Shown here in pieces: positions 639 to 62,375 of a DNA stretch of 64,000 bases. Each line of letters begins with the position of its first letter. Position 1 is the first letter of the stretch. Source of the DNA: an uncultured virus (IMG/VR IMGVR_UViG_2061766007_001347) (taxonomy: Duplodnaviria > Heunggongvirae > Uroviricota > Caudoviricetes); IMG/VR virus record IMGVR_UViG_2061766007_001347; one strand, given 5' to 3'. The notes under the pieces are model-generated. The model made no database searches. It was given only the letters and a program-made list of their open reading frames with translations, and was not told where the DNA came from. A program made the translations under genes and the position numbers.

Positions 639-890
639 TTACATTGCGTTATACATTCTATATAGCTTCATAACAGCTGCATGAGCCATGTCATACTGTT
701 TCTCAAATGCTTCATTGTCTGCAAGTGAATCATCAGAGTAGTACCAGTTATCCATGAAATTTTCAAGACCAATTAGTATGTAATTGATAGCCTCGAGTCC
801 TGATTCTTTATGGTCGTCTTCATTTTTAACTCGTCTATTTTCTAATGCCTTTTCAAGACGAGCGATTCTCGCTTCTAATTTTTTATCCAT
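639..890 (-). CDS. small acidic protein carrying the MDKKLEARIARLE leader
   Basis: N-terminus MDKKLEARIARLEKALENRRVKNED. Confidence 0.85.
   Translation of the reverse strand: MDKKLEARIARLEKALENRRVKNEDDHKESGLEAINYILIGLENFMDNWYYSDDSLADNEAFEKQYDMAHAAVMKLYRMYNAM
852..890 (-). repeat. leader repeat copy 1
   Basis: ATGGATAAAAAATTAGAAGCGAGAATCGCTCGTCTTGAA. Confidence 0.9.
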
Positions 891-905
891 AATGATTGCC
901 CAAAA

Positions 906-1208
906 TTAGTCTACTTTAAAGTCTTTAAACATTTCGCCAACTTTCTCACCAGCTTCACCAAGTTGAGTAAGAGCATCAACCTTTTCAGAATTGTCGTTCA
1001 CTGTATCGCCCTCAAGAGCTTTAATGAAATCTGGAAGAACACTGAGAATTAGTGGAAGATTTTTAAGAATCACTGGAATAGCTTTAGCGACAATTGGAGC
1101 AATCTCATTAGTCACCTGCTTTTCGTTCTTAGCACCAAGCTTTCTATCAAGCGCTTCTTCAATACGATCCAATTTGCTATTTAATAATAAGTACTTTTCG
1201 CTTTTCAT
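906..1208 (-). CDS. hypothetical protein with degenerate leader (KLDRIEEALDRKLGAKNE)
   Basis: ORF track; amphipathic segment after the KNE motif. Confidence 0.7.
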   Translation of the reverse strand: MKSEKYLLLNSKLDRIEEALDRKLGAKNEKQVTNEIAPIVAKAIPVILKNLPLILSVLPDFIKALEGDTVNDNSEKVDALTQLGEAGEKVGEMFKDFKVD

Positions 1209-1234
1209 ATTGCACTGTCCTTATAAAATTTGGC

Positions 1235-1687
1235 TCACTCTTCATTTGAGCTGTTTTCACTAATGATTCTATCAATGATGTCTGACAAATACTCATTTGT
1301 CTTCAGCGTATAATGAGCTTTTGCTTTATCATTTTCTTTAAGCTTTTTTAGAATTGGCTTCCATAAATCTTTTATGCGGTGCCCTAGAATAATAGACTTT
1401 CGTTCTCTATTTCTTCTATACCATTCTTCTTTACATTCATCAGTGTCTTCTGGATAAACAAGTACATACTCACATTTATTTTTATCCAAGACATCAATAG
1501 CACGATCATGTGCTGTTACTAATAATACATCAGCAGTGCCATTGTCTTTAAGACGCTTTGCATAATCAACAATTGATCTATGGTAATCTTCATCAAGACC
1601 AGTTATTTTTACATTCTTTTCACAGTGATTTAATAAGTATGATTTGCCACAGCAAGGGAATGCTGCTATTATTATTTGCTTACTCAT
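1235..1687 (-). CDS. P-loop kinase-like phage protein
   Basis: IIAAFPCCGKS, a variant Walker A motif, at the N-terminus. Confidence 0.6.
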   Translation of the reverse strand: MSKQIIIAAFPCCGKSYLLNHCEKNVKITGLDEDYHRSIVDYAKRLKDNGTADVLLVTAHDRAIDVLDKNKCEYVLVYPEDTDECKEEWYRRNRERKSIILGHRIKDLWKPILKKLKENDKAKAHYTLKTNEYLSDIIDRIISENSSNEE

Positions 1688-1708
1688 ATTTTATTCTCCA
1701 TTTAAGAA

Positions 1709-3772: not shown

Positions 3773-3775
3773 TTA

Positions 3776-4177
3776 TTAAGTAGATTGCGTTCTACGTATT
3801 AAATTCTCTAATCTTCTAATGCGATGCTCTAGTCCAAGCATCTTTTTATCATACTTATCAGATCTTTTCATATAGTCTCCGATGTTTTCTTGAATTGGAT
3901 TTATGTCCACTCTGACATCATCAATATATAAAGGATCTTCATCATTTAACATTGAAAACAAGTCGTCTTCTCTGATATCGCCTTCATATTCTACTACAGC
4001 ATCAAGATCAGAATCATCTCTTGCCTGACCTCTTAGTCTAGAACCATGAAGACGAACTTCTTTAATGATAACATCTTCATCTGAATAGCCATTGTCATAT
4101 AGTCGTTCTGAAATGAATTCACTCACCATATCAACAACTTCATCATATGAATATGATTCTAAGCCTTGAATATCCAT
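3776..4177 (-). CDS. Pol-beta superfamily nucleotidyltransferase with C-terminal leader-like motif
   Basis: GSRLRG...DSDLD motif and VDINP; ends LEHRIRRLENLIRR. Confidence 0.75.
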   Translation of the reverse strand: MDIQGLESYSYDEVVDMVSEFISERLYDNGYSDEDVIIKEVRLHGSRLRGQARDDSDLDAVVEYEGDIREDDLFSMLNDEDPLYIDDVRVDINPIQENIGDYMKRSDKYDKKMLGLEHRIRRLENLIRRTQST

Positions 4178-5262: not shown

Positions 5263-6108
5263 ATGTTGATTGTGAGTAACCAATATGAGTCTTTGAAACA
5301 CATCTTTGAAACAAAGCTAAGTGATGACTATGAAAAGCTTATAGCCGATACGGTAAACTCGCTAAGCAAAGATCATATATACACAGCTGAACGACCAGTA
5401 AGCAATAACAAGTTTAGTGATGTTTATATTACCAGAAATGATGGAGTCTCTTCTTGGCTTGAAGTAAAGATGGATCATCATGCCGGACTTGGTAGTCCTA
5501 GAGTGTTTTATAGCGACTACGATGGCGGTTGGTGTACAACATATAAAACACCAGCTGCTGCATTTGCAGTGGAAATTCTCAATGCTAGCGATGAAGCGGC
5601 TGCGTGGATAGAGCAATTTAAGATCTGGTTATGCAATGAACTGAAGACTTCTACAGATTCTAAGCTTGCCGAAGTTATATGTAACAGTAAAGACGACTGT
5701 GATTATTGCCCAGATGATCTGAAGATAGTTTTACCAACGACGGCTGGTGGATTAGACCTTCATGGCGCAGTCCCTGTTAGTGTAATGCGTAAATTTGTGT
5801 CAGACAATAACCGGAATATCTTGAATTACTCATGTGACATTACTCAGCTTGTAGAAGATCATTACTTAAAAGGGAAAGAAGCTCCAGCCTATTACATTCA
5901 AATTGGAGACGATCTCTATAGAATTGGAGACGGCAATCCGTTTAAGTGGGATATACCAAAACTATCAATTACTTCTGGGAACGTGATAGCTAGGATATCA
6001 ATTAGTAATGATAAGCTTTATGAAATACAGATCGATATAAAGTCTAAAGAATTTAATGACAGCGATTATTCACTGAACCCAGAGTCAAAGAAGATGAGGC
6101 CGTTCTAA
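5263..6108 (+). CDS. PD-(D/E)xK nuclease-like protein
   Basis: FSDVYI...WLEVK motif; GAGG RBS. Confidence 0.6.
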   Translation: MLIVSNQYESLKHIFETKLSDDYEKLIADTVNSLSKDHIYTAERPVSNNKFSDVYITRNDGVSSWLEVKMDHHAGLGSPRVFYSDYDGGWCTTYKTPAAAFAVEILNASDEAAAWIEQFKIWLCNELKTSTDSKLAEVICNSKDDCDYCPDDLKIVLPTTAGGLDLHGAVPVSVMRKFVSDNNRNILNYSCDITQLVEDHYLKGKEAPAYYIQIGDDLYRIGDGNPFKWDIPKLSITSGNVIARISISNDKLYEIQIDIKSKEFNDSDYSLNPESKKMRPF

Positions 6109-7352
6109 TGCTTATTGTAACTGAGAGCTATAATTTAATTGATGATATAATGAATGAAGATAGATACAACTATGGTAGAGGTCTAACGGCTGATCAAGCA
6201 AAAGAAGAACTACACAAAGAATCCCGTGATAAGCGACTAGATGACCTAGTAGACTTTCTATATGAAGTCTGGGTAGATGAGTTTGCAGGCATTGACAGAA
6301 AGATACCTCTAAGATTCCCAGAGGATGTGAAGGGTAAAGTTAAAATTGCTCGTGATTATGCACCATTTCTCAAAGCTAATAGTGAATTTCATGTTAGTGG
6401 AAATAAGTTTACTATTGATGGTATAGAGTTTACATTTGGTGACGGTTCGTTATTCAGTGATAGAGCCGCTGCTGGACGTGAGTATGAGAATGATGTCGCA
6501 GATGATGTGCGTTTCTTATTATTAGAAAATGCAGAATCTAAAGCAGACAGATCAAGATTGAAGGCTCTTCAGGTACAGTATGCTGAGCTGTTAAAAGATA
6601 AGGACTTCAAAGATGCAAAGAAGATAGTCAAGGCTGACCCTAGTGCTATAGATCATATTGTTAGAGTTGAGACTCCAAAGCGCAGAAATAGTCATCATGA
6701 ATTATGGAATAATGACTTCGAAATAAACACTAACACAAAAGATATTAAAGAGTCAGGCAAAATCATTGCCGATGTTGTTATCAATGATAAAATCTACTTA
6801 TCTGCAAAGATAGAGAGTCATCAGCTTTCTGGTGTAAGATGCGCGATGGTGTTCGATAGCAATGCTTTATTCAGAGAGTATGCTAAGCAAAACAGATCAT
6901 TCAAAGATAAAAGCTCATTTGATAGATCAAGTCTTTCTAAAAATACTCCATTTAAAAATTTCTGTGAGCTATTCAGTGTGGATGGATTTGACATGTATAA
7001 TAGCCTAGTTCCTCATAATGATAATGATAGAAAGCTATCTGTGATAAAGCCACAGCCAGAATATTCATCATCTACACTTGGCCTGTTGTTTCGTAAGCTA
7101 GTCGGTGGAAACTATTGGGTAGTTAAACGTGGTGAACCAGTTAGATTTATTGGCGTCAAAAATTCGAATTCTCTCAAGTTTAATATAAGTGACGCGTATA
7201 TCACTAAGTCAGGTAAGAGCATTATATTTAATGGTGATCTTAGTGGATTATCAGCTGCTATCAATGTTCGAACATCTAGTGGTGAAGAATACCCTTGTAG
7301 AATGTTCCCAAAAGTGAACATTGAAGACTTGATAAATTTACTTGCAAAGTAA
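6108..7352 (+). CDS. PD-(D/E)xK nuclease-like protein
   Basis: GREYE...IADVVI...YLSAK pattern; start overlaps the previous stop (TAATG). Confidence 0.5.
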   Translation: MLIVTESYNLIDDIMNEDRYNYGRGLTADQAKEELHKESRDKRLDDLVDFLYEVWVDEFAGIDRKIPLRFPEDVKGKVKIARDYAPFLKANSEFHVSGNKFTIDGIEFTFGDGSLFSDRAAAGREYENDVADDVRFLLLENAESKADRSRLKALQVQYAELLKDKDFKDAKKIVKADPSAIDHIVRVETPKRRNSHHELWNNDFEINTNTKDIKESGKIIADVVINDKIYLSAKIESHQLSGVRCAMVFDSNALFREYAKQNRSFKDKSSFDRSSLSKNTPFKNFCELFSVDGFDMYNSLVPHNDNDRKLSVIKPQPEYSSSTLGLLFRKLVGGNYWVVKRGEPVRFIGVKNSNSLKFNISDAYITKSGKSIIFNGDLSGLSAAINVRTSSGEEYPCRMFPKVNIEDLINLLAK

Positions 7353-7730: not shown

Positions 7731-8087
7731 TTATTCTTCGTCATCGTCGTATTCATCATCAGCATTATATTCTAGATCTGTCATATAGCCGAGCGTATAC
7801 AAGTCATTAAGAACACCATTGAGAATACCGCTAATTGTTTCGGCATCACTCATCATATCTGGATCAGCTCCAGCGTCTATTATAGCTTGATCACATTCTT
7901 TAGCTGTATCTTCTAGCTTGTGTAATGAAGACCAAGCTTTCTTTATAGCTACCATCAAGGTCTTAAACTTGACTACCATCTCAGGGTCATTCATGAGTGT
8001 ACGAAACACTCCCTCATTCTTCATCTGCTTTTTAGACAAAAGCTTTTCCAAATATGCAACTCTTCTTTCTAATTCTTTATTATTCAT
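7731..8087 (-). CDS. leader-family protein (variant)
   Basis: Likely start MNNKELERRVAYLEKLLSKKQMKNEG at 8087; acidic C-terminus. Confidence 0.8.
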   Translation of the reverse strand: MNNKELERRVAYLEKLLSKKQMKNEGVFRTLMNDPEMVVKFKTLMVAIKKAWSSLHKLEDTAKECDQAIIDAGADPDMMSDAETISGILNGVLNDLYTLGYMTDLEYNADDEYDDDEE

Positions 8088-8091
8088 AAGG

Positions 8092-8388
8092 CTACTCTCC
8101 ACCGAAGAAATAATCATCTGGACCCATACCAAGCATATCACGGATCATCTCTAAACTCACAGTGATACTACCTAAATGATCTGCGTAGTCATCGTAATCA
8201 TTTTCTGGATCACTACCAACGATATTCAAATACTGAATTACTTTATTACTATCCAAAAATGACATTGCTTGGTCTATCTGTTTAAATGCATTTATAATCT
8301 GTGCTTTAATTGCATCTGTAGAGTCTTCATTCTTTCTAGAAAGAAGTCTCTCTAATCTTGCAACCCTTGCTTCTAATTTCTTATCCAT
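8092..8388 (-). CDS. leader-family protein
   Basis: MDKKLEARVARLERLLSRKNED; GAGG RBS before ATG 8388. Confidence 0.85.
   Translation of the reverse strand: MDKKLEARVARLERLLSRKNEDSTDAIKAQIINAFKQIDQAMSFLDSNKVIQYLNIVGSDPENDYDDYADHLGSITVSLEMIRDMLGMGPDDYFFGGE
8350..8388 (-). repeat. leader repeat copy 2
   Basis: ATGGATAAGAAATTAGAAGCAAGGGTTGCAAGATTAGAG. Confidence 0.9.
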
Positions 8389-10096: not shown

Positions 10097-10540
10097 TTAG
10101 TCTTCATATAACCTCTTATCTCTTACATAGGCATCTATTGTAATAAAGTCAAACCCATCTTCATGTATAATTTCAAACCCTTCTAACTTTGTAGAATTAG
10201 CCATTGCTCTTAATGAAAATTTAATATGAAGGTTTTCTTCAATAGCTTTACCTAATAATCTACCGGAAGGTGTATCAAGTACATTAGCATCAAGCCATAC
10301 AGTTACTTCATTATCATCTTTTGTATGAGTGATATATACTTTATCAATTAGAAATGCTACATACGGGTAATAAATATCAAATCTCTCTTCAAGATTAGGA
10401 TTAAGCTCACCAAGTAGGCCGTGTGCAAATGGAATCACTTTATTCTCAATGAGACTTCTTGAGTACAATACACGACTGTGTGGAATTACATTAAGCTCCA
10501 TAATTGGGAAGCTAAGCTCTCTTAATACACCGTCTTTCAT
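10097..10540 (-). CDS. T4 gp21-like prohead protease homologue, possibly inactive
   Basis: LY...LGELN, LDTPSGRLL, FSLRA and FITID blocks in gp21 order. Confidence 0.65.
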   Translation of the reverse strand: MKDGVLRELSFPIMELNVIPHSRVLYSRSLIENKVIPFAHGLLGELNPNLEERFDIYYPYVAFLIDKVYITHTKDDNEVTVWLDANVLDTPSGRLLGKAIEENLHIKFSLRAMANSTKLEGFEIIHEDGFDFITIDAYVRDKRLYED

Positions 10541-10916: not shown

Positions 10917-11165
10917 TTATTCACCCATCCCTCTAAGCTCACCAATCATATCTTCAATTTGATTAGCCATAGAATCCCATCTATCTCTCATTGGGTTATC
11001 AGTACCATAATAACCATTGACAAGTTCAACAAGCACTCTATCAGCCATTGAAAGACCGCGAATAGCCTTATTGAGATCATCAGTAAGCATAGATTCATTT
11101 TTAGCTGACTTACGACTCATCATTCTCTCTAATCTTGCAACTCTTGCTTCTAATTTCTTATCCAT
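10917..11165 (-). CDS. leader-family protein
   Basis: MDKKLEARVARLERMMSRKSAKNES. Confidence 0.85.
   Translation of the reverse strand: MDKKLEARVARLERMMSRKSAKNESMLTDDLNKAIRGLSMADRVLVELVNGYYGTDNPMRDRWDSMANQIEDMIGELRGMGE
11127..11165 (-). repeat. leader repeat copy 3
   Basis: ATGGATAAGAAATTAGAAGCAAGAGTTGCAAGATTAGAG. Confidence 0.9.
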
Positions 11166-11222: not shown

Positions 11223-11996
11223 CTAAAGATCGCCTGGTCGTGGTAGATAGCTTAATGCAGCTTCACAGTCACGGCCTAATTTAGCCCAGTTATTAGACGA
11301 CCACATATCATCAAGATCAATTGCACGGCATGCTTTTTCTGCTTCATTTAAAGCATCAATTGCATTTTCTATAGCCTGCTTCGCTCTTATTTCTGCTGGT
11401 GACATTTCTATAGACTCATTCTTTCTAGAAAGCATCTTTTCAAGTCTAGCGATTCTTGCTTCTAATTTCTTATCCATATTTATATCTCCATTTCTAGAAT
11501 TTAACTTGTCGTTTACACTTGTCGATAGCTCAATAGTATTATTGTTACGATTCAAATTTTCATCCATATCATCATCCATATCATCATAATCATACACCGG
11601 CATATACACAGTGAACGATTTTCCATCTGGTAAAACAACTTTACATTTTGCTGTGTCACCGTCCCGCCCTTCCAATGTGATACTAGATGTGTCATCATAA
11701 TCATACATTGATTGTTCAATAGAAGAATATAGCTCTTCTGTACTACATGCGCATTCTTTAGCCCATTCATCCATATCGCCACTAGCGAGCAACTCTTTTA
11801 GTATTTTCTTTGGTTTCGAGCCAACTCTTGCATAATTACCTAATATATCATTTATGTCGAAAGAGTCTTTTTCACCGATATCATATTCTAGGGCACGCCA
11901 ACTGAACTTCGCTGGCCGGAGATACTTTTTCAATGCTTCACTCTTATTAACAAGTTTTTCTAATCTTGCTATTCTTGCCTCTAATTTCTTATCCAT
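11223..11996 (-). CDS. leader-family protein with two leaders in frame; probable second start at 11477
   Basis: MDKKLEARIARLEK at 11996 and again at 11477, each with a GGAG RBS. Confidence 0.8.
   Translation of the reverse strand: MDKKLEARIARLEKLVNKSEALKKYLRPAKFSWRALEYDIGEKDSFDINDILGNYARVGSKPKKILKELLASGDMDEWAKECACSTEELYSSIEQSMYDYDDTSSITLEGRDGDTAKCKVVLPDGKSFTVYMPVYDYDDMDDDMDENLNRNNNTIELSTSVNDKLNSRNGDINMDKKLEARIARLEKMLSRKNESIEMSPAEIRAKQAIENAIDALNEAEKACRAIDLDDMWSSNNWAKLGRDCEAALSYLPRPGDL
11439..11477 (-). repeat. leader repeat copy 4 (internal)
   Basis: ATGGATAAGAAATTAGAAGCAAGAATCGCTAGACTTGAA. Confidence 0.9.
11958..11996 (-). repeat. leader repeat copy 5
   Basis: ATGGATAAGAAATTAGAGGCAAGAATAGCAAGATTAGAA. 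Confidence 0.9.
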
Positions 11997-12007
11997 GTTA
12001 GACTCCA

Positions 12008-12283
12008 TTAAAGTTCAGGATAAATGTCTAGTAAGATATTCTCTGCTTGAGATACGAGATTCTTTGCTTGCGCTATAGCATTCATCACTTCATCACTGTA
12101 GTCAAACACACCTTTGCCATTGACAGCTTTGATATAACGAGCTAAATCATATATACCTGACTGAGCTGTTGTCAAAGCGCTATGTATTGCATCAGCCTTG
12201 ACTTGAGCTGGGTCTTTCATCTCATTCTTGACTTTAAGTGCTTTCTCAAGTCTTGCAATTCTTGCTTCTAATTTATTATCCAT
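12008..12283 (-). CDS. leader-family protein
   Basis: MDNKLEARIARLEKALKVKNEM; GAGG RBS before ATG 12283. Confidence 0.85.
   Translation of the reverse strand: MDNKLEARIARLEKALKVKNEMKDPAQVKADAIHSALTTAQSGIYDLARYIKAVNGKGVFDYSDEVMNAIAQAKNLVSQAENILLDIYPEL
12245..12283 (-). repeat. leader repeat copy 6
   Basis: ATGGATAATAAATTAGAAGCAAGAATTGCAAGACTTGAG. Confidence 0.9.
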
Positions 12284-16435: not shown

Positions 16436-17440
16436 TTAATAGGATGGACTTAGATCTCCAAGAATTAGATCTGATAGATAGTCTTGGATCTCAGCTTCAT
16501 TCGTATCATAGAAGGCTACAGGAGCTACGTCTGTGTCATCAGGCATAATGACCACTTCTTCACTCTTGTCGTTATATAGTAGCTCAGCAACTTCTTTTCC
16601 TTTATAGTATAAATCAACAGATTTATCAGTGTAGTGATCAAAGTAGAGTGTATGGCCAAAAATCTTTATGAGAAAGCTTTGAACATTTCTAATAAGATCT
16701 TTGCCGACTTCACTTGAGAATCCTTCAATGACTATATGAGACTTTTGATTTTTACATTCATGCTTATTTGCCCAATAAGCTCTTAGTGCAGCTTGAGCAT
16801 CTTCCTTAGTATCATACTCAGCATCCCAGTAGTCTTTACGGTTCTTTTTAAGAATTCTCCATTTGTTTCCTACTTTACGAATGACACCTTCTTCATCATC
16901 TTCTTCAAGAACTAAAGATTCTAGTTTAGTGATGCGTCTTTCAAGATCAGCTTCACTGATTTCTTTCTTTGGTCTGTTAAACTTCCATCGTGATTCTCTA
17001 TCAACTGATTCATTCATGCGATCGATAATTCTTTCAAGCGCATATCCAATGCATGAAAGAATAATTCTACGGTTATCTCTTGTAAGAGCAATCGAGTCTC
17101 CTGGCTGTGGAACTACATTCCTGCTTAAAGGTTCTACTTCATCACCGACTCTAATTTCCCATTCTTGAGTTTCCATATTACAAACAATTCGACATTCTTT
17201 TCCAATCTGAGCTTTCAATGCATCTTTATATTTCAAATGCATTCTACGCATAATTCTTCTATAAAATGTAGACATGTCGAATTTGCATGTAGCTATCTTT
17301 CCCCTAAATGAGACATCGGTTAGATTGCATGACTTGCATAAATATGTAAACACTTTTTCTTTTTCAGAGAAATCCTCTGATTCGTTCATTCTCTTGATTC
17401 TAGATTCTAATCTAGCAATTCGTTCTTCTAAGTTGTTCAT
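16436..17440 (-). CDS. multidomain protein with leader-like motifs
   Basis: MNNLEERIARLESRIKRMNES and internal LERRITKLESLVLEE; small IRKVGNKW...YDTKEDA domain. Confidence 0.7.
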   Translation of the reverse strand: MNNLEERIARLESRIKRMNESEDFSEKEKVFTYLCKSCNLTDVSFRGKIATCKFDMSTFYRRIMRRMHLKYKDALKAQIGKECRIVCNMETQEWEIRVGDEVEPLSRNVVPQPGDSIALTRDNRRIILSCIGYALERIIDRMNESVDRESRWKFNRPKKEISEADLERRITKLESLVLEEDDEEGVIRKVGNKWRILKKNRKDYWDAEYDTKEDAQAALRAYWANKHECKNQKSHIVIEGFSSEVGKDLIRNVQSFLIKIFGHTLYFDHYTDKSVDLYYKGKEVAELLYNDKSEEVVIMPDDTDVAPVAFYDTNEAEIQDYLSDLILGDLSPSY

Positions 17441-17451
17441 AACACCTCTCT

Positions 17452-25070: not shown

Positions 25071-26108
25071 TTACTTTGCGCCGTGCTGCTTTAATAGATT
25101 TACATACTTAGCAACAAGAGGCTGGCGCTGATCCCACTTTGACATTTTCTGTAAAAGTGTTTCACCATAACTATTTGGAGTATTTGGATCAATGCCCAAA
25201 TCTAGCAAGTATTCAAATACCTCTACATTTCCCTTAGTAGTAAAATCAGCAGCGCGCCATAGGAGACGTGATTTTGATTTTTCATCTAGATCTGTATTAT
25301 CTAGAATGAGTTTTACCATTGGCGCGTTACCATCACTACATAACTTTTCTAATGTGCTCTGATCTACATTAGCTCCATAATTTAGCAACTCTTTTATGAT
25401 ATTATTCTTTTCAGGAGTAACCTTATTGGGATTCCATTTCTTCATACTGTTGAGCACTGCATTTATTGGGGCACCGCCATTTACTCTATCATGCGCATTT
25501 GGATCAGCGCCAGCTTTTAATAAGAGTTTTACCATAGGATAATTCAAATCAGCAGCAGCTACACAGATTAGTGGGTGACCACTACGTAGCACTACATTAG
25601 GATCTGCACCTGAGCCTAGCAGTTCTTTAGCAATTGCAAGATCATCATCCATGACTGCTTTAATTAAACGATCATCATCACTAATACCGTTTAAGTTAAC
25701 TTCTGGTACAACTGGCAGGTCTACATCTAAAAAGTCGATTATGTCACCTTTTACATCGTAAATGTATTTGATTTTTCTGTCTTTTGTCTGTAAAACGCAG
25801 TATTGCTCTTTTGGGTTATTTTTTGCTATATAGAAATAAAATCCACCGTCTAGGTTTAAGTTTTTAATAGTGTCATTAAATATCTGACCACTTCTCTTTC
25901 CAGCGGTGAAATTCCAGCTTGCTCTTTTACCAATAGCTCGTGCAGCTTCAGGCGTTGTTATTCTATAGACTGCCCAATTTGAATCTTCATAAAGTTTTGT
26001 TGCGCCGTCAACGCTTGCTTCATAAACAGCATGTCTGCGAACATTAAGCTTTGCTTCAAGAAGTTCTACTCGTTTTAGAAGCGATTTATAGTATCTATCA
26101 GTATTCAT
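25071..26108 (-). CDS. ankyrin-repeat protein with N-terminal phage domain and leader-like start
   Basis: LL..GADPN repeats; N-terminal LLKRVELLEAKL...VYEA. Confidence 0.85.
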   Translation of the reverse strand: MNTDRYYKSLLKRVELLEAKLNVRRHAVYEASVDGATKLYEDSNWAVYRITTPEAARAIGKRASWNFTAGKRSGQIFNDTIKNLNLDGGFYFYIAKNNPKEQYCVLQTKDRKIKYIYDVKGDIIDFLDVDLPVVPEVNLNGISDDDRLIKAVMDDDLAIAKELLGSGADPNVVLRSGHPLICVAAADLNYPMVKLLLKAGADPNAHDRVNGGAPINAVLNSMKKWNPNKVTPEKNNIIKELLNYGANVDQSTLEKLCSDGNAPMVKLILDNTDLDEKSKSRLLWRAADFTTKGNVEVFEYLLDLGIDPNTPNSYGETLLQKMSKWDQRQPLVAKYVNLLKQHGAK

Positions 26109-26188: not shown

Positions 26189-26803
26189 TTAACGACTCTT
26201 TCTAGAAAGAAGCTTTTCAAGACGAGCAATTCTATCAACGATAGTTGGCTTTGAGCTGCGTTTACGTGACTCATCATAATAGTCATTGAAGTCATCGCCT
26301 GCTTCAACGTTATAGCCATCATCTTCTTCATCAATCATAGAAAGATCGAAGCCTTTCCACTTAGAAAGTGGATATGCCACGAGATCAGCTGAATCTGAGC
26401 TAAATGGATGACCAGCTGGATCTATTGAATAGCCGTCTTCATTGATAAGGTTTACTGAATTATCAGTTGGATGAACAACAATTGCGTAACCATCTGTTCC
26501 ATCAAGAGAATACTGGAAGGCAAACCGAGCATCAGGGTCTTCTGCAATCTCATCTGTGTCGTTAACTGTTAGCCAGCCATACATTGGACTTTCAATTACG
26601 TCATGTCCTAGATCATCTAATGTAGCACCATCTACGCCAATCATACCACAAAACTGATTTGCAATGCGATCAGCGGCCGCTCTTGCACCATCTACATCAA
26701 GATCAGATTCAAAGCTTTCATTTTTAACAGTTGCCGGTTTTGCCATAACTTTTTCGAGACGAGCGATACGTTGTTCTAATGTAAGTTTTTTAGCTTTAGC
26801 CAT
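26189..26803 (-). CDS. acidic protein with the leader motif at both ends
   Basis: LEQRIARLEKVMAKPATVKNES at the N-terminus, IVDRIARLEKLLSRKSR at the C-terminus. Confidence 0.8.
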   Translation of the reverse strand: MAKAKKLTLEQRIARLEKVMAKPATVKNESFESDLDVDGARAAADRIANQFCGMIGVDGATLDDLGHDVIESPMYGWLTVNDTDEIAEDPDARFAFQYSLDGTDGYAIVVHPTDNSVNLINEDGYSIDPAGHPFSSDSADLVAYPLSKWKGFDLSMIDEEDDGYNVEAGDDFNDYYDESRKRSSKPTIVDRIARLEKLLSRKSR

Positions 26804-49947: not shown

Positions 49948-52900
49948 TTAAGCATGTGGTAATCTAGCAGGAGCAGATGCACCAGCAGGTCTTTTAACAA
50001 ATGACGCCATATCACGTAAGTATCTTACTACATCTTTCATAGCTAAAACAATTTCATCTTTTGATGAATCTTTATTGTTAGCTACATCCTTTGCTTTAGA
50101 ATTTGATACGTCATATCTAACTTGACCGTTTGTTTGAGTTATTACAGCGTTGATAGCACTTCTTGATAGATTTTGTAAAGTCTCAAGTGGAGTATCTTGT
50201 TTTGCTTTAGCTCCCTCTGCAATAAGATCTGTACCCTCTGCCAAGCCTGAATATAATTTACTATATTCTTCAGGCGTCATTTCTTTTATCGGCTCTTGAG
50301 CTGGAGTGTTTTGCGCTGCTTGTTCAGCTGGTGAAGGAACTATTCCATCTGGATCACCGAGCTGTTTAGTAGCAATATACTTTGATGTGGCTTCATCAAA
50401 CATTCCATCATAGAATCCGGCTGCTACCATACCCCATTTGGCCTTGCGATTCATAGGAACTTCGACTACACCTTTAGATGTAGGAGTTGCTTGAAACTGA
50501 CCCTTTTTATAATTGCCATTAACAGCTGAACCTGAAGCGTTTACCCACTTTCCATCGGTTGTAATAATTCCCATGTGCTGTGGGAACCCAGTGTTATCAC
50601 TCTTATTAGAGAACCCTATCATACCAGGAACAGCGTCATCTAGGTTAACCCTATGTAGTTTTGGATTCTTCCAATGAGTACTAACGGTGCCAGATGGGAA
50701 CTGCTTAAACCCGGCTGATCTAAACGCAGATTGAACTAGTGTATTACAAACAAAGCCGTCACTGTATATAGAATATGGTTTACCAACTTGATCTCTAGCA
50801 TATGCTATAGCATTCTCAGCTATTGAATTTCCTAAAGCCGTACTGACTACAGCTTGAGTAACATTCTTACGATCTTTAGGAGACATTCGTTCTATAATCT
50901 TTTTAATGAGACTTGGCTTTTCAAGTGGGAGAACAGCCTCGCCACCCTTTTCACCAACTATAGCTGCCCCAGTGGTTCTTGGTGTACCGCCTTCATGCAT
51001 GTTTAAGCTAGTTAGAAATTCATAAATTCCTCTAACAAATTCAGAATTAGTTGTAACACTCTTAGAAATAGTCTCTAATAAGCTTCCAGTATTTGGTGGT
51101 AAAGTAGCAACCTGCTGTTGATCTCTTGCTGCATCTAAATATTTCTGAACATCATCAGCTGCTGATTGATCAAACTGAATACCGTTCTTAAAAGCATCTG
51201 AATTTAATGCGGCTTTAAAATTATCAACAGCTTTCGAAGTACTGGCTTCACTTATCTTTCTGTCAGCTTCGGCTTTTGTTATCATAGCCATGTGTTCTGA
51301 TTGATACGATTCAGATGCTGAGACTAATTCATCTCTAGCTTTTGCTATCTTATCAGCATCCTTCGAACTTAATGCTTCTTCAAATGCCTTTTTAGCAGCA
51401 TTAAATCTTTCTTCTTCAGCTGACCCACTCTCTTTACCAAGAAGTGCTGCTTTAGCAGCTTCAAAATCTCTTCTGGCTTGAGCAGTCTCTTCACTTTCAC
51501 CAAAGAATTCAAACTTCTTAAGTAATGCATACTGTATTGACTTGACTACAAGGTTCAATGTATTAAAGCCAGCTGTTAACGGCGCTGCTATAAACTTAAC
51601 TAAAAATTCTTTAGCGTAAGACCAAACAGTATCAAGACCATTTCGTATTATTTCAAGACCACTAGATACAACTGGACCGAGCCCCTCTTGTAAATATTTA
51701 ACAGTCCCAGACAGCCAACCAATGACAGTTGGAATTTTACTAACAAAGTAATTAAATAAGCCATTAGCTGTAACTACGATATCATTTACAAATTTGGCTA
51801 TATTTTTAACCAGGTCAATAATAGTGGTTATTAAAGCTGAAATAGCTTTGAGAGGCGGCTCAATTAGTTCTAAGATGAGATTTACTATGTGGTCAACAGT
51901 ATCTGCAACAGTCTCAAGAATTGCAGCAATTGGAGGCATTAGTACATCAACCAACTTAGTAAAAGCATCAACAATTGGTGGTAATAGTGTCTGAACTGCA
52001 TACTTAACAATGTCTATAACTGGCGGTAAAATAATTGTAATAAACTTATCAAGAATACCAAGTACTTTTGGCAATACTTGCTTAATCCCATACCCAATAA
52101 TGTCTAGAATTGTTGGCAAGTTTTCAGCTATCGCTTTTGCTAAAACGTTTACACCTTCTGAGATAAGTCTAATTGGCTCTACAAGAGTAACAATAACTTC
52201 TCTAACAGCATCGACTGTAGATATAATGATTTCTCTAAAGCTATCAATGAGATCAATGCCAAGTACTTTTATGCAATCAATCAGTGATAAACCAAGCTCA
52301 CGAATTGCTTCTATTGCTGGAAATACCGCTTCAGCAATAGTTTGAAGAACCTGAACAATTGCTGGAATTGCTGGCGCAATCGCATCGATTAGTTTGTTTA
52401 TGCATTCTACTACCTTTAAGACGATATCTTTAATTGCAGGTACAGCGTCACCGATTAGTTTACCAATCCCATCAAAGAATCCCTTAAATGTAGGAGCAGC
52501 TTCTTTTAATTTTTCTCCAATGCTTGTTGATGCATTCTTCAAACTCCCACCGGCGTTCTTAAGAGAATCTTTTGTTTTTGACATGTCAATGTTAGACATA
52601 GAAGTCTTAATAGCATCAACCATAGCTTTAGAATCATCTGAGCCTGAAAGCTTTGACTTAAGACCGTCAATAGCACCAGAGATAGATGATCCGGCTTTGC
52701 CTAACATTCCGCCATCACCAAAGAAGCCGGAAATTGCACTTTTAATTCCCTTCCATATCTCAGGTAAAAGATCACTTATGCCACTAATTACATCTTGAAT
52801 GAAACCTGGAACTTTACTTATGAACTCAGCCAGCATTGGTTTTATATTGTCAAAAATCTCACCTAGCTTTGGCTTAATCTTATCCCAGTTTGCCACTATA

Positions 52901-54345
52901 GCAATAATGGCACCCGCAGCACCAAGACCACCTAGAACCCATTTTGTGATACTGCTAGAATTTAACCAGATGGCCTTTAATAAGCCAGACACAAGCTTAA
53001 ATCCAGTCGTAACAACCTTACCCATATCAGCCGAATCACCGAATAACTCATCAAGAGTATTTGCAAATTTACCAGCTGCGCCACCTAAGAAAGCGTTGTC
53101 GAACTGACCAAATGCTTTTTGTAATTCAAATTTAATTTTACCATCAGAAGCATTGTCAGATAGAGCCTGTTCATTTTGTTCTCTTGTGCGAAGATTCGTG
53201 CCAACATTTTGACCATTGGCCTGCATATTTTTAATAGTAAGCATTTGATTAGCCATCTGTCTAGTAGATTCATCACTAGAACTAGCCATAGCTCTAAGTT
53301 GCTCAGTAGAATATTGACCAGCTTTTTCTACTAAATTCTGCCCTTCGCTACCTATTTCTTGAATGCCACCCTGAATAGCAAGTAAAGCGCCGTCAACTTC
53401 TTCAGTTATACCATTGGCAGCTCTACGATTGTTTGCTGCCATCTGTGCGGCTTTCTCCCAATCTGTAATAGCACCACCAGCATATTTAGCTGTACTCGCA
53501 GAACTTTGTGCAATCTGAGATATTACTTTATCCACGCCAACAGTAGCTCTTTCTGATTCAGATACTGTAGCTAACTGCTGCTTAATAAGTTGACGTGCAC
53601 GAGGGTCTGTTGCGGCTGTTGTTATTTGTTTAACAGCTTCGGTGCTAGCTTCCATCGCATACTTATACGCTTCAGCATCGTCTAACCCTGATTTTCTTAA
53701 AGCAGCGTATTTAGCTCTCTGCTCTTCACCCATGGCCTCAAGGTCATGACCGCCAGCCTGTAACGCGTTATAGTACTCAACGATCTCAGACTTATCCAAC
53801 TTAAAACCTAGTAAGTCCTCTACCTGACCCTGAGCCTCATTAGCCATCATTTGAGATCTATCTTTCTCTTCTTTAGTAAGAAAGTTTTGTCTCATTAGCT
53901 TTGCATACTGAGTCTGTGTTTTAAGAGTATCATTCAACACACCAAGCAAAGAATTTTTAAGATCATTAAGAACGTTCTTAAAAGTATCTTTAAGATCTTT
54001 AAGTGCGTTTAAGTTATCTTTGTGCTGCTTGCCAGCTAATGCTTTATCTATTGCTCTGTTGTTAGCCTCAGACGCCATACTCTTTTTCTGGCTACTATTT
54101 ATTCCAGACAGAGCTTTCTGTACTGCACGATCATTGCTTGAAGAAGCTTTACTTTGACCTCTAGCAATCTCATTGGCTGTGTTCTGATTATTGAGTGAGC
54201 TGTCAAAAAACTTCTTAGCTTCTTTTTCGTCAGCACTTTTCTTAGTAAGATATGAATATATTGCATCTAGCGTTTTGTTGGCTTCATCATCAAATGTGAA
54301 TAAAGGCTTGCTAGTGTCTATGTTAAAATTAGTCCCGCTTTCCAT
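49948..54345 (-). CDS. tape measure protein with C-terminal NlpC/P60 peptidase
   Basis: Long amphipathic repeats; HEGG...VGEKGGEAVLPL; VGKPY...VCNTLV...PG...HMGI. Confidence 0.88.
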   Translation of the reverse strand: MESGTNFNIDTSKPLFTFDDEANKTLDAIYSYLTKKSADEKEAKKFFDSSLNNQNTANEIARGQSKASSSNDRAVQKALSGINSSQKKSMASEANNRAIDKALAGKQHKDNLNALKDLKDTFKNVLNDLKNSLLGVLNDTLKTQTQYAKLMRQNFLTKEEKDRSQMMANEAQGQVEDLLGFKLDKSEIVEYYNALQAGGHDLEAMGEEQRAKYAALRKSGLDDAEAYKYAMEASTEAVKQITTAATDPRARQLIKQQLATVSESERATVGVDKVISQIAQSSASTAKYAGGAITDWEKAAQMAANNRRAANGITEEVDGALLAIQGGIQEIGSEGQNLVEKAGQYSTEQLRAMASSSDESTRQMANQMLTIKNMQANGQNVGTNLRTREQNEQALSDNASDGKIKFELQKAFGQFDNAFLGGAAGKFANTLDELFGDSADMGKVVTTGFKLVSGLLKAIWLNSSSITKWVLGGLGAAGAIIAIVANWDKIKPKLGEIFDNIKPMLAEFISKVPGFIQDVISGISDLLPEIWKGIKSAISGFFGDGGMLGKAGSSISGAIDGLKSKLSGSDDSKAMVDAIKTSMSNIDMSKTKDSLKNAGGSLKNASTSIGEKLKEAAPTFKGFFDGIGKLIGDAVPAIKDIVLKVVECINKLIDAIAPAIPAIVQVLQTIAEAVFPAIEAIRELGLSLIDCIKVLGIDLIDSFREIIISTVDAVREVIVTLVEPIRLISEGVNVLAKAIAENLPTILDIIGYGIKQVLPKVLGILDKFITIILPPVIDIVKYAVQTLLPPIVDAFTKLVDVLMPPIAAILETVADTVDHIVNLILELIEPPLKAISALITTIIDLVKNIAKFVNDIVVTANGLFNYFVSKIPTVIGWLSGTVKYLQEGLGPVVSSGLEIIRNGLDTVWSYAKEFLVKFIAAPLTAGFNTLNLVVKSIQYALLKKFEFFGESEETAQARRDFEAAKAALLGKESGSAEEERFNAAKKAFEEALSSKDADKIAKARDELVSASESYQSEHMAMITKAEADRKISEASTSKAVDNFKAALNSDAFKNGIQFDQSAADDVQKYLDAARDQQQVATLPPNTGSLLETISKSVTTNSEFVRGIYEFLTSLNMHEGGTPRTTGAAIVGEKGGEAVLPLEKPSLIKKIIERMSPKDRKNVTQAVVSTALGNSIAENAIAYARDQVGKPYSIYSDGFVCNTLVQSAFRSAGFKQFPSGTVSTHWKNPKLHRVNLDDAVPGMIGFSNKSDNTGFPQHMGIITTDGKWVNASGSAVNGNYKKGQFQATPTSKGVVEVPMNRKAKWGMVAAGFYDGMFDEATSKYIATKQLGDPDGIVPSPAEQAAQNTPAQEPIKEMTPEEYSKLYSGLAEGTDLIAEGAKAKQDTPLETLQNLSRSAINAVITQTNGQVRYDVSNSKAKDVANNKDSSKDEIVLAMKDVVRYLRDMASFVKRPAGASAPARLPHA

Positions 54346-54370
54346 ACTGTCTTTCTCCAGATAAAGTAAA

Positions 54371-54402
54371 AGCTCTATGTATTTTGATATGTACATAGAG
54401 CT
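54371..54402 (-). terminator. hairpin with ATATCAA in the loop, upstream of the tape measure gene
   Basis: AGCTCTATGTA/TACATAGAGCT. Confidence 0.65.
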
Positions 54403-54434
54403 TCATAGATCAGTTGGATTGTATCTTCAGATCA

Positions 54435-55487
54435 TTATATAATTACATCGAAATAACGATTTAGAAATCTCTTAAGCTCATCAATCGTTTTCTTATTTGA
54501 ACTTGCATATCTCTTCAAGCACGAAACTATGCTCTTAAGTGGTATGAATGAAAACTCATCTTTCAACTTAATCACTACTTTATAGTTTGGATCTTGATTG
54601 TCATCAGAATCCAGAGTGAATACACCAGGTCGTCTCATTGAGATTAAGTTGTAGTTATAAGCTTTTATAGATTCAACTGCATCTGATAATGCATATTGAC
54701 CATTTGAATCAAATCTTGCATTCTTCACAACAGCCGTATTGGATGTAGTTTCAAACCATTCATCAAGCTCTTTGTTAGATTGATACGAATAAGGATATGA
54801 AACATCGTCTGATTTTGCAACGAAGTCAGCTATACCAAGATCAGTAAATACTACAAAATGGAAGTACTTATAGCTATCAACAACTTCACCAAATATGTTC
54901 TCAGTAGAGACTTTCTTTAGTGTTGGCTGGTTTTCTGCTTCATCAACTACACGAGTATCTTCAACGATAATGCTATCTCTAACTGATTCATTAGCTGCTA
55001 TAAATGAACGGCTGTATGAATAATCACTATCAAGCTGACGAACGTACAAAACATAGTGCTTACTCTTAAAATAGTCACATTCACATAGGAAGTCTTTACT
55101 CATCTTAAGAGCAGCAACATCATTTGGAGTCTTGCTTGCTTTTGTTGACACTAACTCAAATTTGCTATTCATATAATGAATATTGTCAGTGTCACGATCA
55201 GAATATGAAAACCACGGTAAAATATCCTCATCAGTAAACCCAGACGTCTCTAGATCCTTATAATCTTGTCTAGTAAATGACTGTATGAGATTATTTGTGT
55301 TTACCTTGACTTGACTAGAAAATCTATCTACGAGTGATTTAGCACTACTATCATTAGTGCTTGAAGCTGGAGCCTCATTTACAACTTCAGTTTTACTTTG
55401 CTTTTGTTTATTTGTTTCAGACTGTCTAAGTTTTGATAAGATATCAGCCAAACCTTCATCAATTCTAATACCGCCTACGTCTGCCAT
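54435..55487 (-). CDS. hypothetical protein
   Basis: 350 aa ORF; GGAG RBS. Confidence 0.65.
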   Translation of the reverse strand: MADVGGIRIDEGLADILSKLRQSETNKQKQSKTEVVNEAPASSTNDSSAKSLVDRFSSQVKVNTNNLIQSFTRQDYKDLETSGFTDEDILPWFSYSDRDTDNIHYMNSKFELVSTKASKTPNDVAALKMSKDFLCECDYFKSKHYVLYVRQLDSDYSYSRSFIAANESVRDSIIVEDTRVVDEAENQPTLKKVSTENIFGEVVDSYKYFHFVVFTDLGIADFVAKSDDVSYPYSYQSNKELDEWFETTSNTAVVKNARFDSNGQYALSDAVESIKAYNYNLISMRRPGVFTLDSDDNQDPNYKVVIKLKDEFSFIPLKSIVSCLKRYASSNKKTIDELKRFLNRYFDVII

Positions 55488-58476: not shown

Positions 58477-58902
58477 CTAAGAATTTCTAAGAACTGTCAA
58501 TAACTCAAAGTACTTAAGCTTGCCTTTTTTATAATCTTTATAGTAAGAACTAAAGTCTTTCTCAAGAGTATAATCTCTAGTAAAATCAGAGAAGATACTC
58601 TTTTCACTGTCAGACAGCTTTGACCAAATAGCAGAAAATACATGCTGAACCGTAAATGGAACTATATGAGACGTCAACAAGTGATGTGGCCTATACTGTT
58701 TATTTTCTGCAAAACAAAACAGATGCTCGTTATGCTCTTCGCAAAACAGCTTAGCTGCCTTAGTATTTGTGTTATCGTGAAATGGGCAAAAGCATGAAGT
58801 AGTTCTATCTGGAAAGCTTATACCGGCATATTTTAATAGATATTCAAAAGTGCAAAAATAATCTATCACATTAAGCTCAAGAGCAAAGTCTGCGTTTGCC
58901 AT
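58477..58902 (-). CDS. stand-alone primase-type (CHC2-like) Zn-binding protein
   Basis: CFCPFHDN...LFCF. Confidence 0.65.
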   Translation of the reverse strand: MANADFALELNVIDYFCTFEYLLKYAGISFPDRTTSCFCPFHDNTNTKAAKLFCEEHNEHLFCFAENKQYRPHHLLTSHIVPFTVQHVFSAIWSKLSDSEKSIFSDFTRDYTLEKDFSSYYKDYKKGKLKYFELLTVLRNS

Positions 58903-58911
58903 ATTGATACT

Positions 58912-60111: not shown

Positions 60112-60169
60112 AATCGATTATTCTCCAAACACATGTAGCATGATACTTACACTTACATATATTACTTAG

Positions 60170-60206
60170 ATATACAACAAAACCCTGATAGGCTGAACTA
60201 TCAGGG
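60170..60206 (-). terminator. terminator followed by a TGTATAT box
   Basis: CCCTGATAG/CTATCAGGG stem, then TTTTGTTGTATATCTAA. Confidence 0.72.
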
Positions 60207-60220
60207 CATTGCTAATTTAA

Positions 60221-60478
60221 CTAAAGAGATTGAACATAATTAAGAACGCCAGAGACTGCATCAAGAGCTTTATCTAAAGCAACTCCAGCTTTACTTAATC
60301 CACGTTTAATGCCAGGATTAGCATCTCCAACTGAGACCATCTCATCCTTTAGATCTAAGATTCCATCAAATAGTTTAACTATCTGACCTTCAACATCATT
60401 AGCATATGATTCTTCATTCATCATCTTCTCTAAACGAGAAATTCTTGATTCCAAAATATCTCTTCTACTACGCATCAT
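60221..60478 (-). CDS. leader-family protein (variant)
   Basis: ILESRISRLEKMMNEES. Confidence 0.75.
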   Translation of the reverse strand: MMRSRRDILESRISRLEKMMNEESYANDVEGQIVKLFDGILDLKDEMVSVGDANPGIKRGLSKAGVALDKALDAVSGVLNYVQSL

Positions 60479-60484
60479 GTACCT

Positions 60485-62005
60485 CTATTGCCTCTTCCAA
60501 AGAAAGTTCTTCTTCAGTTCTTTTGTGTCTGAATAATCTATGTCAATATAGTTGCACTCACAGCTATCAAGAGCTCCCATTGACTCATCACCAAGTAAGA
60601 TCTTAATAAGACCAATACGCTTTTTCAAAAGCGTGGTCCTATATGTGTCAATGGTATCTTTGACAGATATAAAATAGATATTCTGAGCATCATATGTAGA
60701 GTCCATACGACAAATTCTTCCGAGTACCTGAACAACTCTACCACAAGAGAATGGGCAGTTCATAATGATAATGTTATTTGCACGCTGAAGATTTCTTGAC
60801 TGTGACGCAGCTTGACTACATAGTATGATTTCTTTTAACCCAAGAGATGATTCAATCTTAGCTCTAGTATCTTCCTTCTCAGCACCGGTAAGTTTATAAA
60901 GAGACTTGAAACCAATCTCATCTTTATTCTGTAGAAGAATTTTTTCTGCAAGCTCGAGTGTGTCAATATACTCAAAGTAGATTAAAGCTGATTCATTCTT
61001 ATTTATGACATCTGTTACAGCTTGACACATTAGCTTCATCTTATTAGAGATAAAGTCAACACCAAGTGAATCATCTGAACCGTCACAAATTCTCTGAAGA
61101 TCATGTAGTCTAGCGCCAAAGTCTTTTGCATCATCTGCCAAACTGGCTGGCTCATCACTCTTTTTCTTAGCTTTCTTTTTCACTTTCTCAGGATGATAGA
61201 GAATATCAAAAAATCCTTTTGCAGCCATAGAATAAAGCTTCTCACACTCTTTATCAAGGTCACACTCAAGGAAATTAAAGTTAACATTATAGTGAACACA
61301 GCCTTTTATGATAAGCTTATCAAGAACACCATTTAATTCTTCCATGTTTTGGAAGCCAATAATTTCGGTGATCTTTCTCTGAACTACAACACCATATCTG
61401 TTCTTCATCCTAATAGTTCTGTCTTGTGTGATGCAATATCTGGCTCTAAATCTAAACCATGACTGAAACACTCTAGGGTAGACAAAATGAAGTACATTAA
61501 ATAAACCCTCAATATCATTCAGTAAAGGTGTAGCTGTCATTGCAATTATCTTCTTACAATAGCATCTAACTTCCCAAGCGGCACTAGCAAACACAGACTT
61601 TGGATTCTGAAGAGAATGAGCTTCATCTATAATTAGATGGCATGTGTTAGTACTAGCAAGAGCTACAAGATCTTCAATGTATTTATTTACAATGGAGTTC
61701 TCAACGATGATGTATCGTCTACTTAAAATATCTGCATACGCAACTGTCTTTCCAGCAGTAACAAATATATAGTCACTTTCTGGAATCTCAAGCTTTGTAG
61801 ACAGCTCTTTCTTAAATGCTGCCCTGGCGGACTTTGGGATAAACAATATGCACTTATCGTTATTATCTTTAAGAAGATCTTCTTTAACATGAGACAAAAC
61901 GCACAGAGTCTTACCACAGCCAGGGGAGAGTGCAAGTATAGCAGCATTCATTGATCTAAGCTTTTCTATTGAGCTCTTCTGAAGATCAGACAATTCAAAT
62001 TTCAT
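60485..62005 (-). CDS. SNF2-like superfamily 2 helicase/ATPase
   Basis: PGCGKT, IIDEAH, MTATP, NLQRAN, QVLGRICR. Confidence 0.9.
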   Translation of the reverse strand: MKFELSDLQKSSIEKLRSMNAAILALSPGCGKTLCVLSHVKEDLLKDNNDKCILFIPKSARAAFKKELSTKLEIPESDYIFVTAGKTVAYADILSRRYIIVENSIVNKYIEDLVALASTNTCHLIIDEAHSLQNPKSVFASAAWEVRCYCKKIIAMTATPLLNDIEGLFNVLHFVYPRVFQSWFRFRARYCITQDRTIRMKNRYGVVVQRKITEIIGFQNMEELNGVLDKLIIKGCVHYNVNFNFLECDLDKECEKLYSMAAKGFFDILYHPEKVKKKAKKKSDEPASLADDAKDFGARLHDLQRICDGSDDSLGVDFISNKMKLMCQAVTDVINKNESALIYFEYIDTLELAEKILLQNKDEIGFKSLYKLTGAEKEDTRAKIESSLGLKEIILCSQAASQSRNLQRANNIIIMNCPFSCGRVVQVLGRICRMDSTYDAQNIYFISVKDTIDTYRTTLLKKRIGLIKILLGDESMGALDSCECNYIDIDYSDTKELKKNFLWKRQ

Positions 62006-62031
62006 ACTTAATAATCCTATGCAAAATAAAA

Positions 62032-62061
62032 CCCAGCAATGAAATATACATCACTACTGGG
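62032..62061 (-). promoter_or_regulatory. terminator hairpin whose loop is the TGTATAT box
   Basis: Minus strand CCCAGTAGTGA-TGTATATT-TCATTGCTGGG-TTTTATTTT, with G-U pairs in the stem. Confidence 0.72.
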
Positions 62062-62090
62062 CTAATGCTAAATCATATGATGTGTAAATA

Positions 62091-62375
62091 TTAAAATTCT
62101 TTCCCGTTCTCTCTATCTTCAAAGATAGAATTAAAGCGATCGTTAGCTTCTTTTGAGAACGAACTTTCGCATACTTTAAGTGCCATATTTACATCATTAT
62201 AATTAGTAATGTCATTATATGCAAGTGTCTTACATAGATCATTTACAATCTGTCTAATACTATCAGCCGCTCTATATACAGCATTAGCAACTTCGTCAGT
62301 AGCTTCATTTCTAATAGATTTACGATTCATCATTCTCTCAAGTCTTGCTATTCTTGCTTCTAATTTCTTATCCAT
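62091..62375 (-). CDS. leader-family protein
   Basis: MDKKLEARIARLERMMNRKSIRNEA. Confidence 0.85.
   Translation of the reverse strand: MDKKLEARIARLERMMNRKSIRNEATDEVANAVYRAADSIRQIVNDLCKTLAYNDITNYNDVNMALKVCESSFSKEANDRFNSIFEDRENGKEF
62337..62375 (-). repeat. leader repeat copy 7
   Basis: ATGGATAAGAAATTAGAAGCAAGAATAGCAAGACTTGAG. Confidence 0.9.

Follow-up and report, generated by a model that had tools for sequence, protein, structure and literature searches.

What is the role of a short peptide that recurs, in nearly the same form, at the start of otherwise dissimilar phage proteins? The question is raised by a stretch of DNA from an uncultured member of the Caudoviricetes (IMG/VR record IMGVR_UViG_2061766007_001347), analysed over its whole length of 64,000 nucleotides and called the window below. 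Here minus-strand genes are headed by a tag whose helix, MDKKLEARIARLE, is followed by a basic spacer and then by K-N-E. An initial annotation had proposed that this tag is a capsid-loading and maturation signal. From sequence comparison we consider it probable, with moderate confidence, that the tag targets proteins to the capsid as a T4-type propeptide does, though in a new form with a longer coiled-coil helix and with K-N-E as a new cutting rule.

The tag, its copies and the N-E motif

The consensus tag comprises an amphipathic helix of ~14-16 residues (L-E-x-R-I-A-R-L-E-K-L-L, i.e. two heptads), a short basic spacer and a K-N-E end. At gene starts there are seven near-identical, four looser and two degenerate copies. 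The exact starts proposed earlier for the near-identical copies (890, 8388, 11165, 11477, 11996, 12283 and 62375, all on the minus strand) were verified. Six looser copies had also been proposed, and four of these, at 8087, 17440, 26803 and 60478, were recovered by a profile hidden Markov model (HMM) of the tag (E 2e-11 to 9e-9). The fifth, at 1208, is degenerate but real, because the protein of its gene (906-1208) has a homologue, database protein P0137 (41% identity, E 5e-20), that bears a canonical tag at the aligned place. The sixth, at 26108 on an ankyrin protein, has a heptad-like helix only and is merely a possible tag variant. All of the copies are given below, with HMM marking those matched by the model and lengths in amino acids (aa).

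819..890, minus strand: canonical tag of 24 aa with a K-N-E end, heading gene 639-890 (83 aa, acidic cargo); HMM E 3.5e-12
1122..1208, minus strand: degenerate tag of 29 aa with a K-N-E end, heading gene 906-1208; homologue P0137 canonical at the aligned place
3779..3832, minus strand: tag-like helix, C-terminal, in the nucleotidyltransferase gene 3776-4177 (Pfam NTP_transf_2); weak, HMM E 0.7
8013..8087, minus strand: looser tag with a K-N-E end, heading gene 7731-8087; HMM E 2.4e-11
8326..8388, minus strand: canonical tag of 21 aa with a K-N-E end, heading gene 8092-8388; HMM
11094..11165, minus strand: canonical tag of 24 aa with a K-N-E end, heading gene 10917-11165; HMM
11415..11477, minus strand: canonical tag through K-N-E with its own ATG and an upstream GGAG, inside open reading frame (ORF) 11223-12008, heading the second module; HMM
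11937..11996, minus strand: canonical tag with a K-S-E end at the start of ORF 11223-12008 (first module); HMM
12221..12283, minus strand: canonical tag, MDNK variant, with a K-N-E end, heading gene 12008-12283; HMM
16901..17038, minus strand: two internal tag-like stretches in gene 16436-17461, of which 17006-17038 ends in M-N-E and 16901-16945 is a helix followed by an acidic run; weak HMM E-values
17381..17440, minus strand: looser tag with an M-N-E end, heading gene 16436-17440 (334 aa); HMM E 8.7e-9
26034..26108, minus strand: possible variant helix, no N-E, at the start of the ankyrin-repeat gene 25071-26108; unmatched by HMM and patterns
26192..26248, minus strand: second tag helix, C-terminal, in gene 26189-26803; HMM E 1.1e-4
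26717..26803, minus strand: looser tag of 29 aa with a K-N-E end, heading the same gene 26189-26803; HMM E 8.8e-10
60413..60478, minus strand: looser tag with an M-N-E end, heading gene 60221-60478; HMM E 4.5e-10
62304..62375, minus strand: canonical tag of 24 aa with an R-N-E end, heading gene 62091-62375; HMM; structure modelled

The tag had been described as an N-terminal label. It does stand at many gene starts, but copies missed earlier are also internal (16436-17461) and C-terminal (3776-4177 and 26189-26803).

The copies are far more frequent than chance would give. A strict pattern had 12 matches in the window, all in minus-strand gene frames and none in other frames, while 300 shuffles of the 69 predicted proteins averaged 0.06 matches and never exceeded 2. 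In the 68 complete predicted window proteins, 12 of the 19 [K/R/M]-N-E triplets lie directly behind a tag or tag-like helix.

We used a profile of 24 tags to search 1.84 billion representative proteins at E <= 0.001, which returned 181 protein clusters (50% identity). The counts given here and below for public tagged proteins are those among the matches listed, i.e. the best 150 of the 181, of which 149 proved genuine by inspection and one was a repeat protein. The tag starts within residues 1-25 in 137/149 and lies inside the protein in 12/149; nine of the 149 carry multiple tags, and the median length is 91 aa. N-E was found within 22 residues behind 131 of 157 tags, a share that is somewhat inflated because the search profile included the N-E columns. 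P3 is Lys in 118 of these 131, and the P1' residue is small or acidic (Ser 38, Asp 29, Ala 15, Gly 13); the remaining tags mostly end in K-[S/T/Y/F]-E. The distance from helix to N-E has peaks at 8 and 11 residues, and in one orthologous family N-E is invariant while the spacer gains or loses 3 residues.

An AlphaFold2 (AF2) model of the protein of 62091-62375 (mean predicted local distance difference test score, pLDDT, 85) places the tag in a separate helix (pLDDT 63-74), with residues 19-23 beside R-N-E below 50 and residues 28-89 in a bundle at 94-96. This predicted layout fits what would be expected of a detachable label with an exposed site. A Foldseek search of the model against BFVD gave no matches at E <= 0.001.

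Head genes of the relatives and the case for capsid targeting

Relatives of the window are present in IMG/VR, and two of their contigs carry an orthologue, 89-91% identical, of the tagged protein 62091-62375. The contigs of the closest relatives also carry head genes. One relative is G001, a 204-kb contig rated 95% complete with ~70% DNA identity to the window over core genes, whose head genes are of T4 type: a Gp23-type capsid protein (PF07068, 1.4e-35), a portal protein (PF07230, 3.1e-36) and, directly upstream of the capsid gene, a Peptidase_S77 protease (PF03420, 5.6e-14), with PHROGs in agreement. The related proteases of T4, phiKZ, 201phi2-1 and SPN3US are all described as cutting C-terminal to Glu (PMC5694885; PMC9026906).

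The N-E motif is found in head proteins of the relatives. The capsid proteins of 10/10 relatives (two of them at 36-37% identity) have x-N-E-[S/A/G] at residues 52-58, immediately ahead of the conserved domain, with K, R, T, A or V at P3; in a weak alignment this N-E lies 23 residues ahead of the conserved N-arm motif, compared with 32 in mature T4 gp23. The protease has a C-terminal extension of ~170 residues in which an N-E site is conserved in 8/8 relatives, with a helix that fits a loose tag pattern only.

The tag helix itself appears next to the portal. Immediately following its portal gene, the closest relative has a gene for a very acidic protein of 228 aa with a tag-like helix ending in K-N-E and a total of four K-N-E motifs, where 0.09 would be expected (P = 2.7e-6). 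Among the 258 proteins of G001 there is a short form of this protein, of 55 aa, which the tag HMM picks up at E 4e-3. In the T4 gene order the cleaved core proteins gp67 and gp68 occupy the same position after the portal. The head module also encodes another acidic protein, 143-165 aa long, in which N-E-S is invariant and two helices show the heptad type of the tag, and a protein of 310-317 aa that has a tag-like helix at its end. Over the whole of G001 the loose tag pattern occurs 18 times against 2.3 expected (maximum 7 in 200 shuffles).

In the mechanism that we propose, the helix would dock a protein onto the prohead core through coiled-coil contacts, as is suggested by the same helix on the core-like protein beside the portal and by similar helices on other head-module proteins. 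Once the shell had closed, an S77 (T4 gp21-type) prohead protease would cut after the Glu of x-N-E, the same motif as at the end of the capsid protein's own propeptide. The cargo, mostly small, acidic and fast-changing, would thereby be freed inside the head and would probably be ejected into the host with the DNA.

The annotation had expected the signal in head proteins too. In relatives this was mostly borne out. At the level of the motif it is there, i.e. in the capsid propeptide, in the protease tail and in the tagged portal-adjacent protein with its four K-N-E; at the level of the tag HMM, the 55-aa form is matched but the scaffold-like protein and the capsid propeptide are not significant. 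The cutting rule would not be that of T4 or phiKZ, because P3 of the tag is Lys. The capsid-loading proposal as a whole is partly supported; the cargo is diverse, as described below, and the link to the head comes through relatives.

Several observations weigh against capsid targeting. No head genes lie in the 64-kb window, so that the link between tag and head rests on relatives with ~70% DNA identity, and the tagged genes sit among genes for replication and nucleotide metabolism. T4 internal proteins are mostly basic, unlike the acidic cargo here. The C-terminal tag copies are without N-E, K-N-E is not enriched proteome-wide (24 observed in G001 against 20 expected), and the 131/157 share carries the upward bias noted above. 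The tag HMM is not significant on the scaffold-like acidic protein (E 8) or on the 310-aa head-module protein (E 0.76); these two and the protease helix resemble the tag at the level of the loose pattern only. Finally, the tag is absent from the nearest cultured phages (Thornevirus-like, ~30% capsid-protein identity), and the clade has no cultured member.

A bolder version of capsid targeting is core mimicry, which we put forward tentatively, as a possibility that we would not yet favour. Here the helix of the portal-adjacent core protein would have been copied onto a library of proteins (at least 181 clusters) shuffled by recombination, with the tag as the crossover point between phages; freed by cutting under a previously undescribed protease rule, K-N-E, the library would be injected as a first wave of counter-defence. 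It may include ankyrin-repeat proteins and small acidic proteins, with the tag placed at either end or between polyprotein modules, and the small acidic proteins may be DNA mimics.

Many of the same observations can be read without a capsid. The helix could be a docking or oligomerisation module, through which the tagged proteins form homo- or hetero-oligomers or bind one common cytoplasmic partner of phage or host, with K-N-E serving as helix cap and linker. Such a module would fit the canonical two-heptad pattern, the presence of the tag at either end of and inside proteins, the C-terminal copies lacking N-E, the early-looking replication genes around the tagged genes and the failure of the tag HMM to reach significance on the scaffold-like protein. 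We regard it as unlikely; it leaves unexplained the strictness of Lys-Asn-Glu despite a spacer of varying length, the N-E at the end of the capsid propeptide in 10/10 relatives, and the presence of both the tag and four K-N-E on the core-like protein beside the portal.

Diversity of the cargo and setting of the tagged genes

If the tag is a capsid-targeting propeptide, the proteins behind it are its cargo, and we compared these downstream of the Glu. Among the 13 window cargos the best BLASTP E was 0.049, and 12/13 have an isoelectric point (pI) of 4.1-5.3, whereas the tag is basic. Public cargos are similarly acidic (median pI 4.5, <5.5 in 94%). The 126 public cargo parts of at least 35 aa fell into 78 BLAST groups, 52 of them singletons, and profile-profile comparison of the 10 largest groups gave a probability of at most 25% over 45 pairs. 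The statement that the cargo differs in sequence and is not one ordinary paralogue family therefore stands, since no similarity between cargos is detectable, although many of the small acidic helical cargos could share a distant origin. Neither Pfam nor PHROGs assigned a family to any tagged protein or to the core-like proteins.

The tagged genes turn over faster than their neighbours: 5/13 tagged cargos have a G001 homologue, compared with 40/56 untagged genes. The internal proteins of T4 are described as likewise fast-changing (PMC3012670, PMC9026906). In database proteins a given cargo can follow upstream modules that differ, the join being at the tag, which suggests that the conserved tag doubles as a crossover point.

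The size of the cargo is not uniform: in G001, six ankyrin-repeat proteins and further proteins of 320-629 aa likewise begin with the tag helix. G001 ankyrin proteins with tag-like helix starts lie at 100243-108039 and 189861-192823 (the window has the ankyrin-repeat gene 25071-26108), and a further ankyrin protein adjoins the portal gene. Ankyrin proteins may be a main class of large cargo.

These data bear on a second alternative, that the tagged proteins are one fast-evolving paralogue family, i.e. a three- or four-helix acidic protein whose first helix is held alike by function or gene conversion, the tag not being portable. The common size, acidity and helical character of the public proteins and the tandem clusters of tagged genes speak for it, and it is compatible with a targeting role. 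We nevertheless think it improbable, as there is no sequence or profile similarity across cargo groups and the same helix heads ankyrin-repeat and 320-629-aa proteins and closes a nucleotidyltransferase; the mostly synonymous differences between copies also argue against recent gene conversion.

Pairwise comparison of codons 1-14 of the seven near-identical copies gave 75 synonymous changes and 28 non-synonymous changes, the latter conservative. Selection therefore acts on the peptide and not on the DNA, as had been proposed from the same copies. The regions upstream of the tagged genes contain ribosome-binding sites only, with no common promoter. A GAGG-type site and ATG GAT AAG AAA do recur upstream of and at the tagged starts, and together with the joining of cargo to different modules at the tag they could be taken to mean that nucleic acid is what is conserved (a shared ribosome-binding site and first codons for strong starts, or a recombination cassette shuffling modules, with a peptide of no role), but this is very improbable given the synonymous excess, a conserved peptide that runs ~20 residues to N-E, the existence of C-terminal copies, and the fact that shuffling at the tag could follow from its conservation instead of having caused it.

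The arrangement of modules around the tag varies in other ways. ORF 11223-12008 (261 aa) holds two tagged modules in one frame with no stop between them. In the public proteins P0041, P0053, P0071, P0072, P0094, P0101, P0118 and P0133 the junction before the internal tag is conserved and encodes a GGAG ribosome-binding site, with the flanking modules swapped. Such in-frame tagged modules are possibly polyproteins, run-on ORFs or products of recombination at the tag. The cargo family of 26189-26803 (L017:11164-11817; P0020, P0066, P0075) has one or two tandem N-terminal tags, varying by phage, and a basic tail behind a conserved Y-Y-D-E-S that is always at the end; the tail contains a tag helix in the window copy only. 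At G001 193983-194864 a homologue of the window nucleotidyltransferase 3776-4177 is fused to a domain matching the C-terminal part of 16436-17461.

A tblastn search with one tagged protein against 50,697 phage records returned nothing relevant, and a word-index protein search returned only 12 orthologues. The tag was unmatched in G006 (227 kb, capsid protein 37% identical), G007 and Listeria phage LIS04, and all-against-all comparison of N-termini revealed no other abundant tag in G006. The tag string was not found in the literature searched, nor did we find a paper on such tags in uncultured phages or across metagenomes.

The source of the window is an uncultured jumbo phage, from a clade of uncultured jumbo phages of ~200 kb. 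The window has a G+C content of 35-38% and carries 67 of its 69 predicted genes on the minus strand. These include genes for replication and nucleotide metabolism (SHMT, family-A DNA polymerase, thioredoxin, NrdD, SNF2 helicase and 5'-3' exonuclease), an amidase, and the sheath, tape measure and baseplate wedge of a contractile-tail module. The plus strand has just two genes, at 5263-7352 (281 and 414 aa), which have neither a family match nor a G001 homologue and may be an inserted cassette. In G001, several HNH-type homing-endonuclease genes are inserted in the head module between capsid, portal and neighbours (52848-54946, 72601-73908 and 77103-78203; L013, L014), and a TnpB-like transposase pair lies at L012:14260-16015.

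The sole DNA match of the window to known phages was to Prevotella Lak phages. Identity as a Lak megaphage was rejected because this match is limited to 182 bases at 80% within the NrdD gene. Strong GAGG-type ribosome-binding sites stand upstream of gene starts (e.g. 8388, 11165, 12283 and 62375) and the hosts of the nearest cultured capsid-protein relatives are Listeria, Streptococcus and Bacillus; a low-GC Gram-positive host is therefore more likely than Prevotella.

Beside the main cluster of tagged genes the window has a relative of the prohead protease.

10097..10540, minus strand: truncated S77 prohead-protease-domain paralogue, 147 aa

Its product is 32% identical to the protease of a relative (E 2e-20) and has no Pfam match. 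S77 proteases have a His-Ser-Asp triad (PMC5694885); here Ser and Asp are retained and there is no His at the position aligned to the His of G-G-H-P-E, and on this basis the ORF is filed as a probably inactive paralogue. It resembles gp117, a cryptic protease paralogue of SPN3US described as truncated and without the aligned His (PMC5694885).

Significance and comparison with known systems

If the tag is indeed a capsid-targeting propeptide, this clade packages, and probably injects, a protein set that is much larger and faster-changing than that of T4. Packaged proteins would then be recognisable from sequence by a 20-residue label, giving a ready list of candidate host-takeover or anti-defence proteins. 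The S77/herpesvirus-like protease family would gain a new specificity, x-N-E, and a short helical tag with a built-in release site could be used for loading foreign proteins into capsids. The unsolved binding partner of the capsid-targeting sequence (CTS) would also become more tractable, because the same helix sits on a core-like protein.

The closest known system is the T4 CTS, described as ~10 residues with the rule L/I-X-E and an affinity for the core, on internal proteins that are diverse apart from the tag (PMC9026906, PMC3012670). As with IPI, IPII, IPIII and Alt of T4, from which it is removed by gp21, a short N-terminal peptide is common to unrelated fast-changing proteins. The head machinery also agrees, in that the relatives have a gp23-type capsid protein, a gp20-type portal and an S77 protease, although the window itself is without head genes. 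In both systems the tag ends in a site with Glu at P1, as at the capsid propeptide, a likeness that for the present tag is at sequence level only. In T4, core proteins are cut at several sites, as would be the case here. C-terminal propeptides are described for T4 Alt and gp21 as well (PMC9026906, PMC3012670), and T4 gp21 and SPN3US gp245 are trimmed at the C-terminus (PMC9026906; PMC5694885).

The differences from T4 concern form and scale. Our tag is 20-29 residues long, with a two-heptad amphipathic helix and a basic spacer, compared with ~10 residues in T4; its cut motif would be K-N-E, with Lys at P3 as counted above, in place of L/I-X-E, and the overall rule would be x-N-E. Copies are also internal and C-terminal, and the cargo is acidic. 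The family is also far larger, as the tag is borne by 12-13 genes within 64 kb and public data contain 181 such clusters, all known so far from sequence alone.

The propeptides on head and ejection proteins of phiKZ, 201phi2-1 and SPN3US, which have gp175/gp245-type proteases, share with our system the jumbo-phage setting and a T4-related protease, which in those phages cuts after Glu, and SPN3US gp53 and gp54 likewise have conserved N-termini on diverged paralogues (PMC5694885). However, those propeptides are described as mostly >100 residues long with S/A/G-X-E or A-X-E motifs (PMC5694885), whereas the tags here, at 20-29 residues, are short, uniform and helical, have Lys at P3 and are found on many more proteins. 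They therefore do not belong to the long-propeptide class.

Outside viruses, the encapsulation peptides of bacterial microcompartments and the cargo-loading peptides of encapsulins use a short terminal amphipathic helix or peptide, N- or C-terminal and joined by a flexible linker, to load diverse cargo into a shell. These systems are non-viral and their tag is not known to be removed by a protease; the likeness is an analogy of mechanism only, as no such shell genes were seen here. On the capsid-targeting reading, the logic and the head machinery are the same as in T4, and the differences lie in the length and helicity of the label, the cutting rule, the acidic cargo, the internal and C-terminal copies, and the scale.

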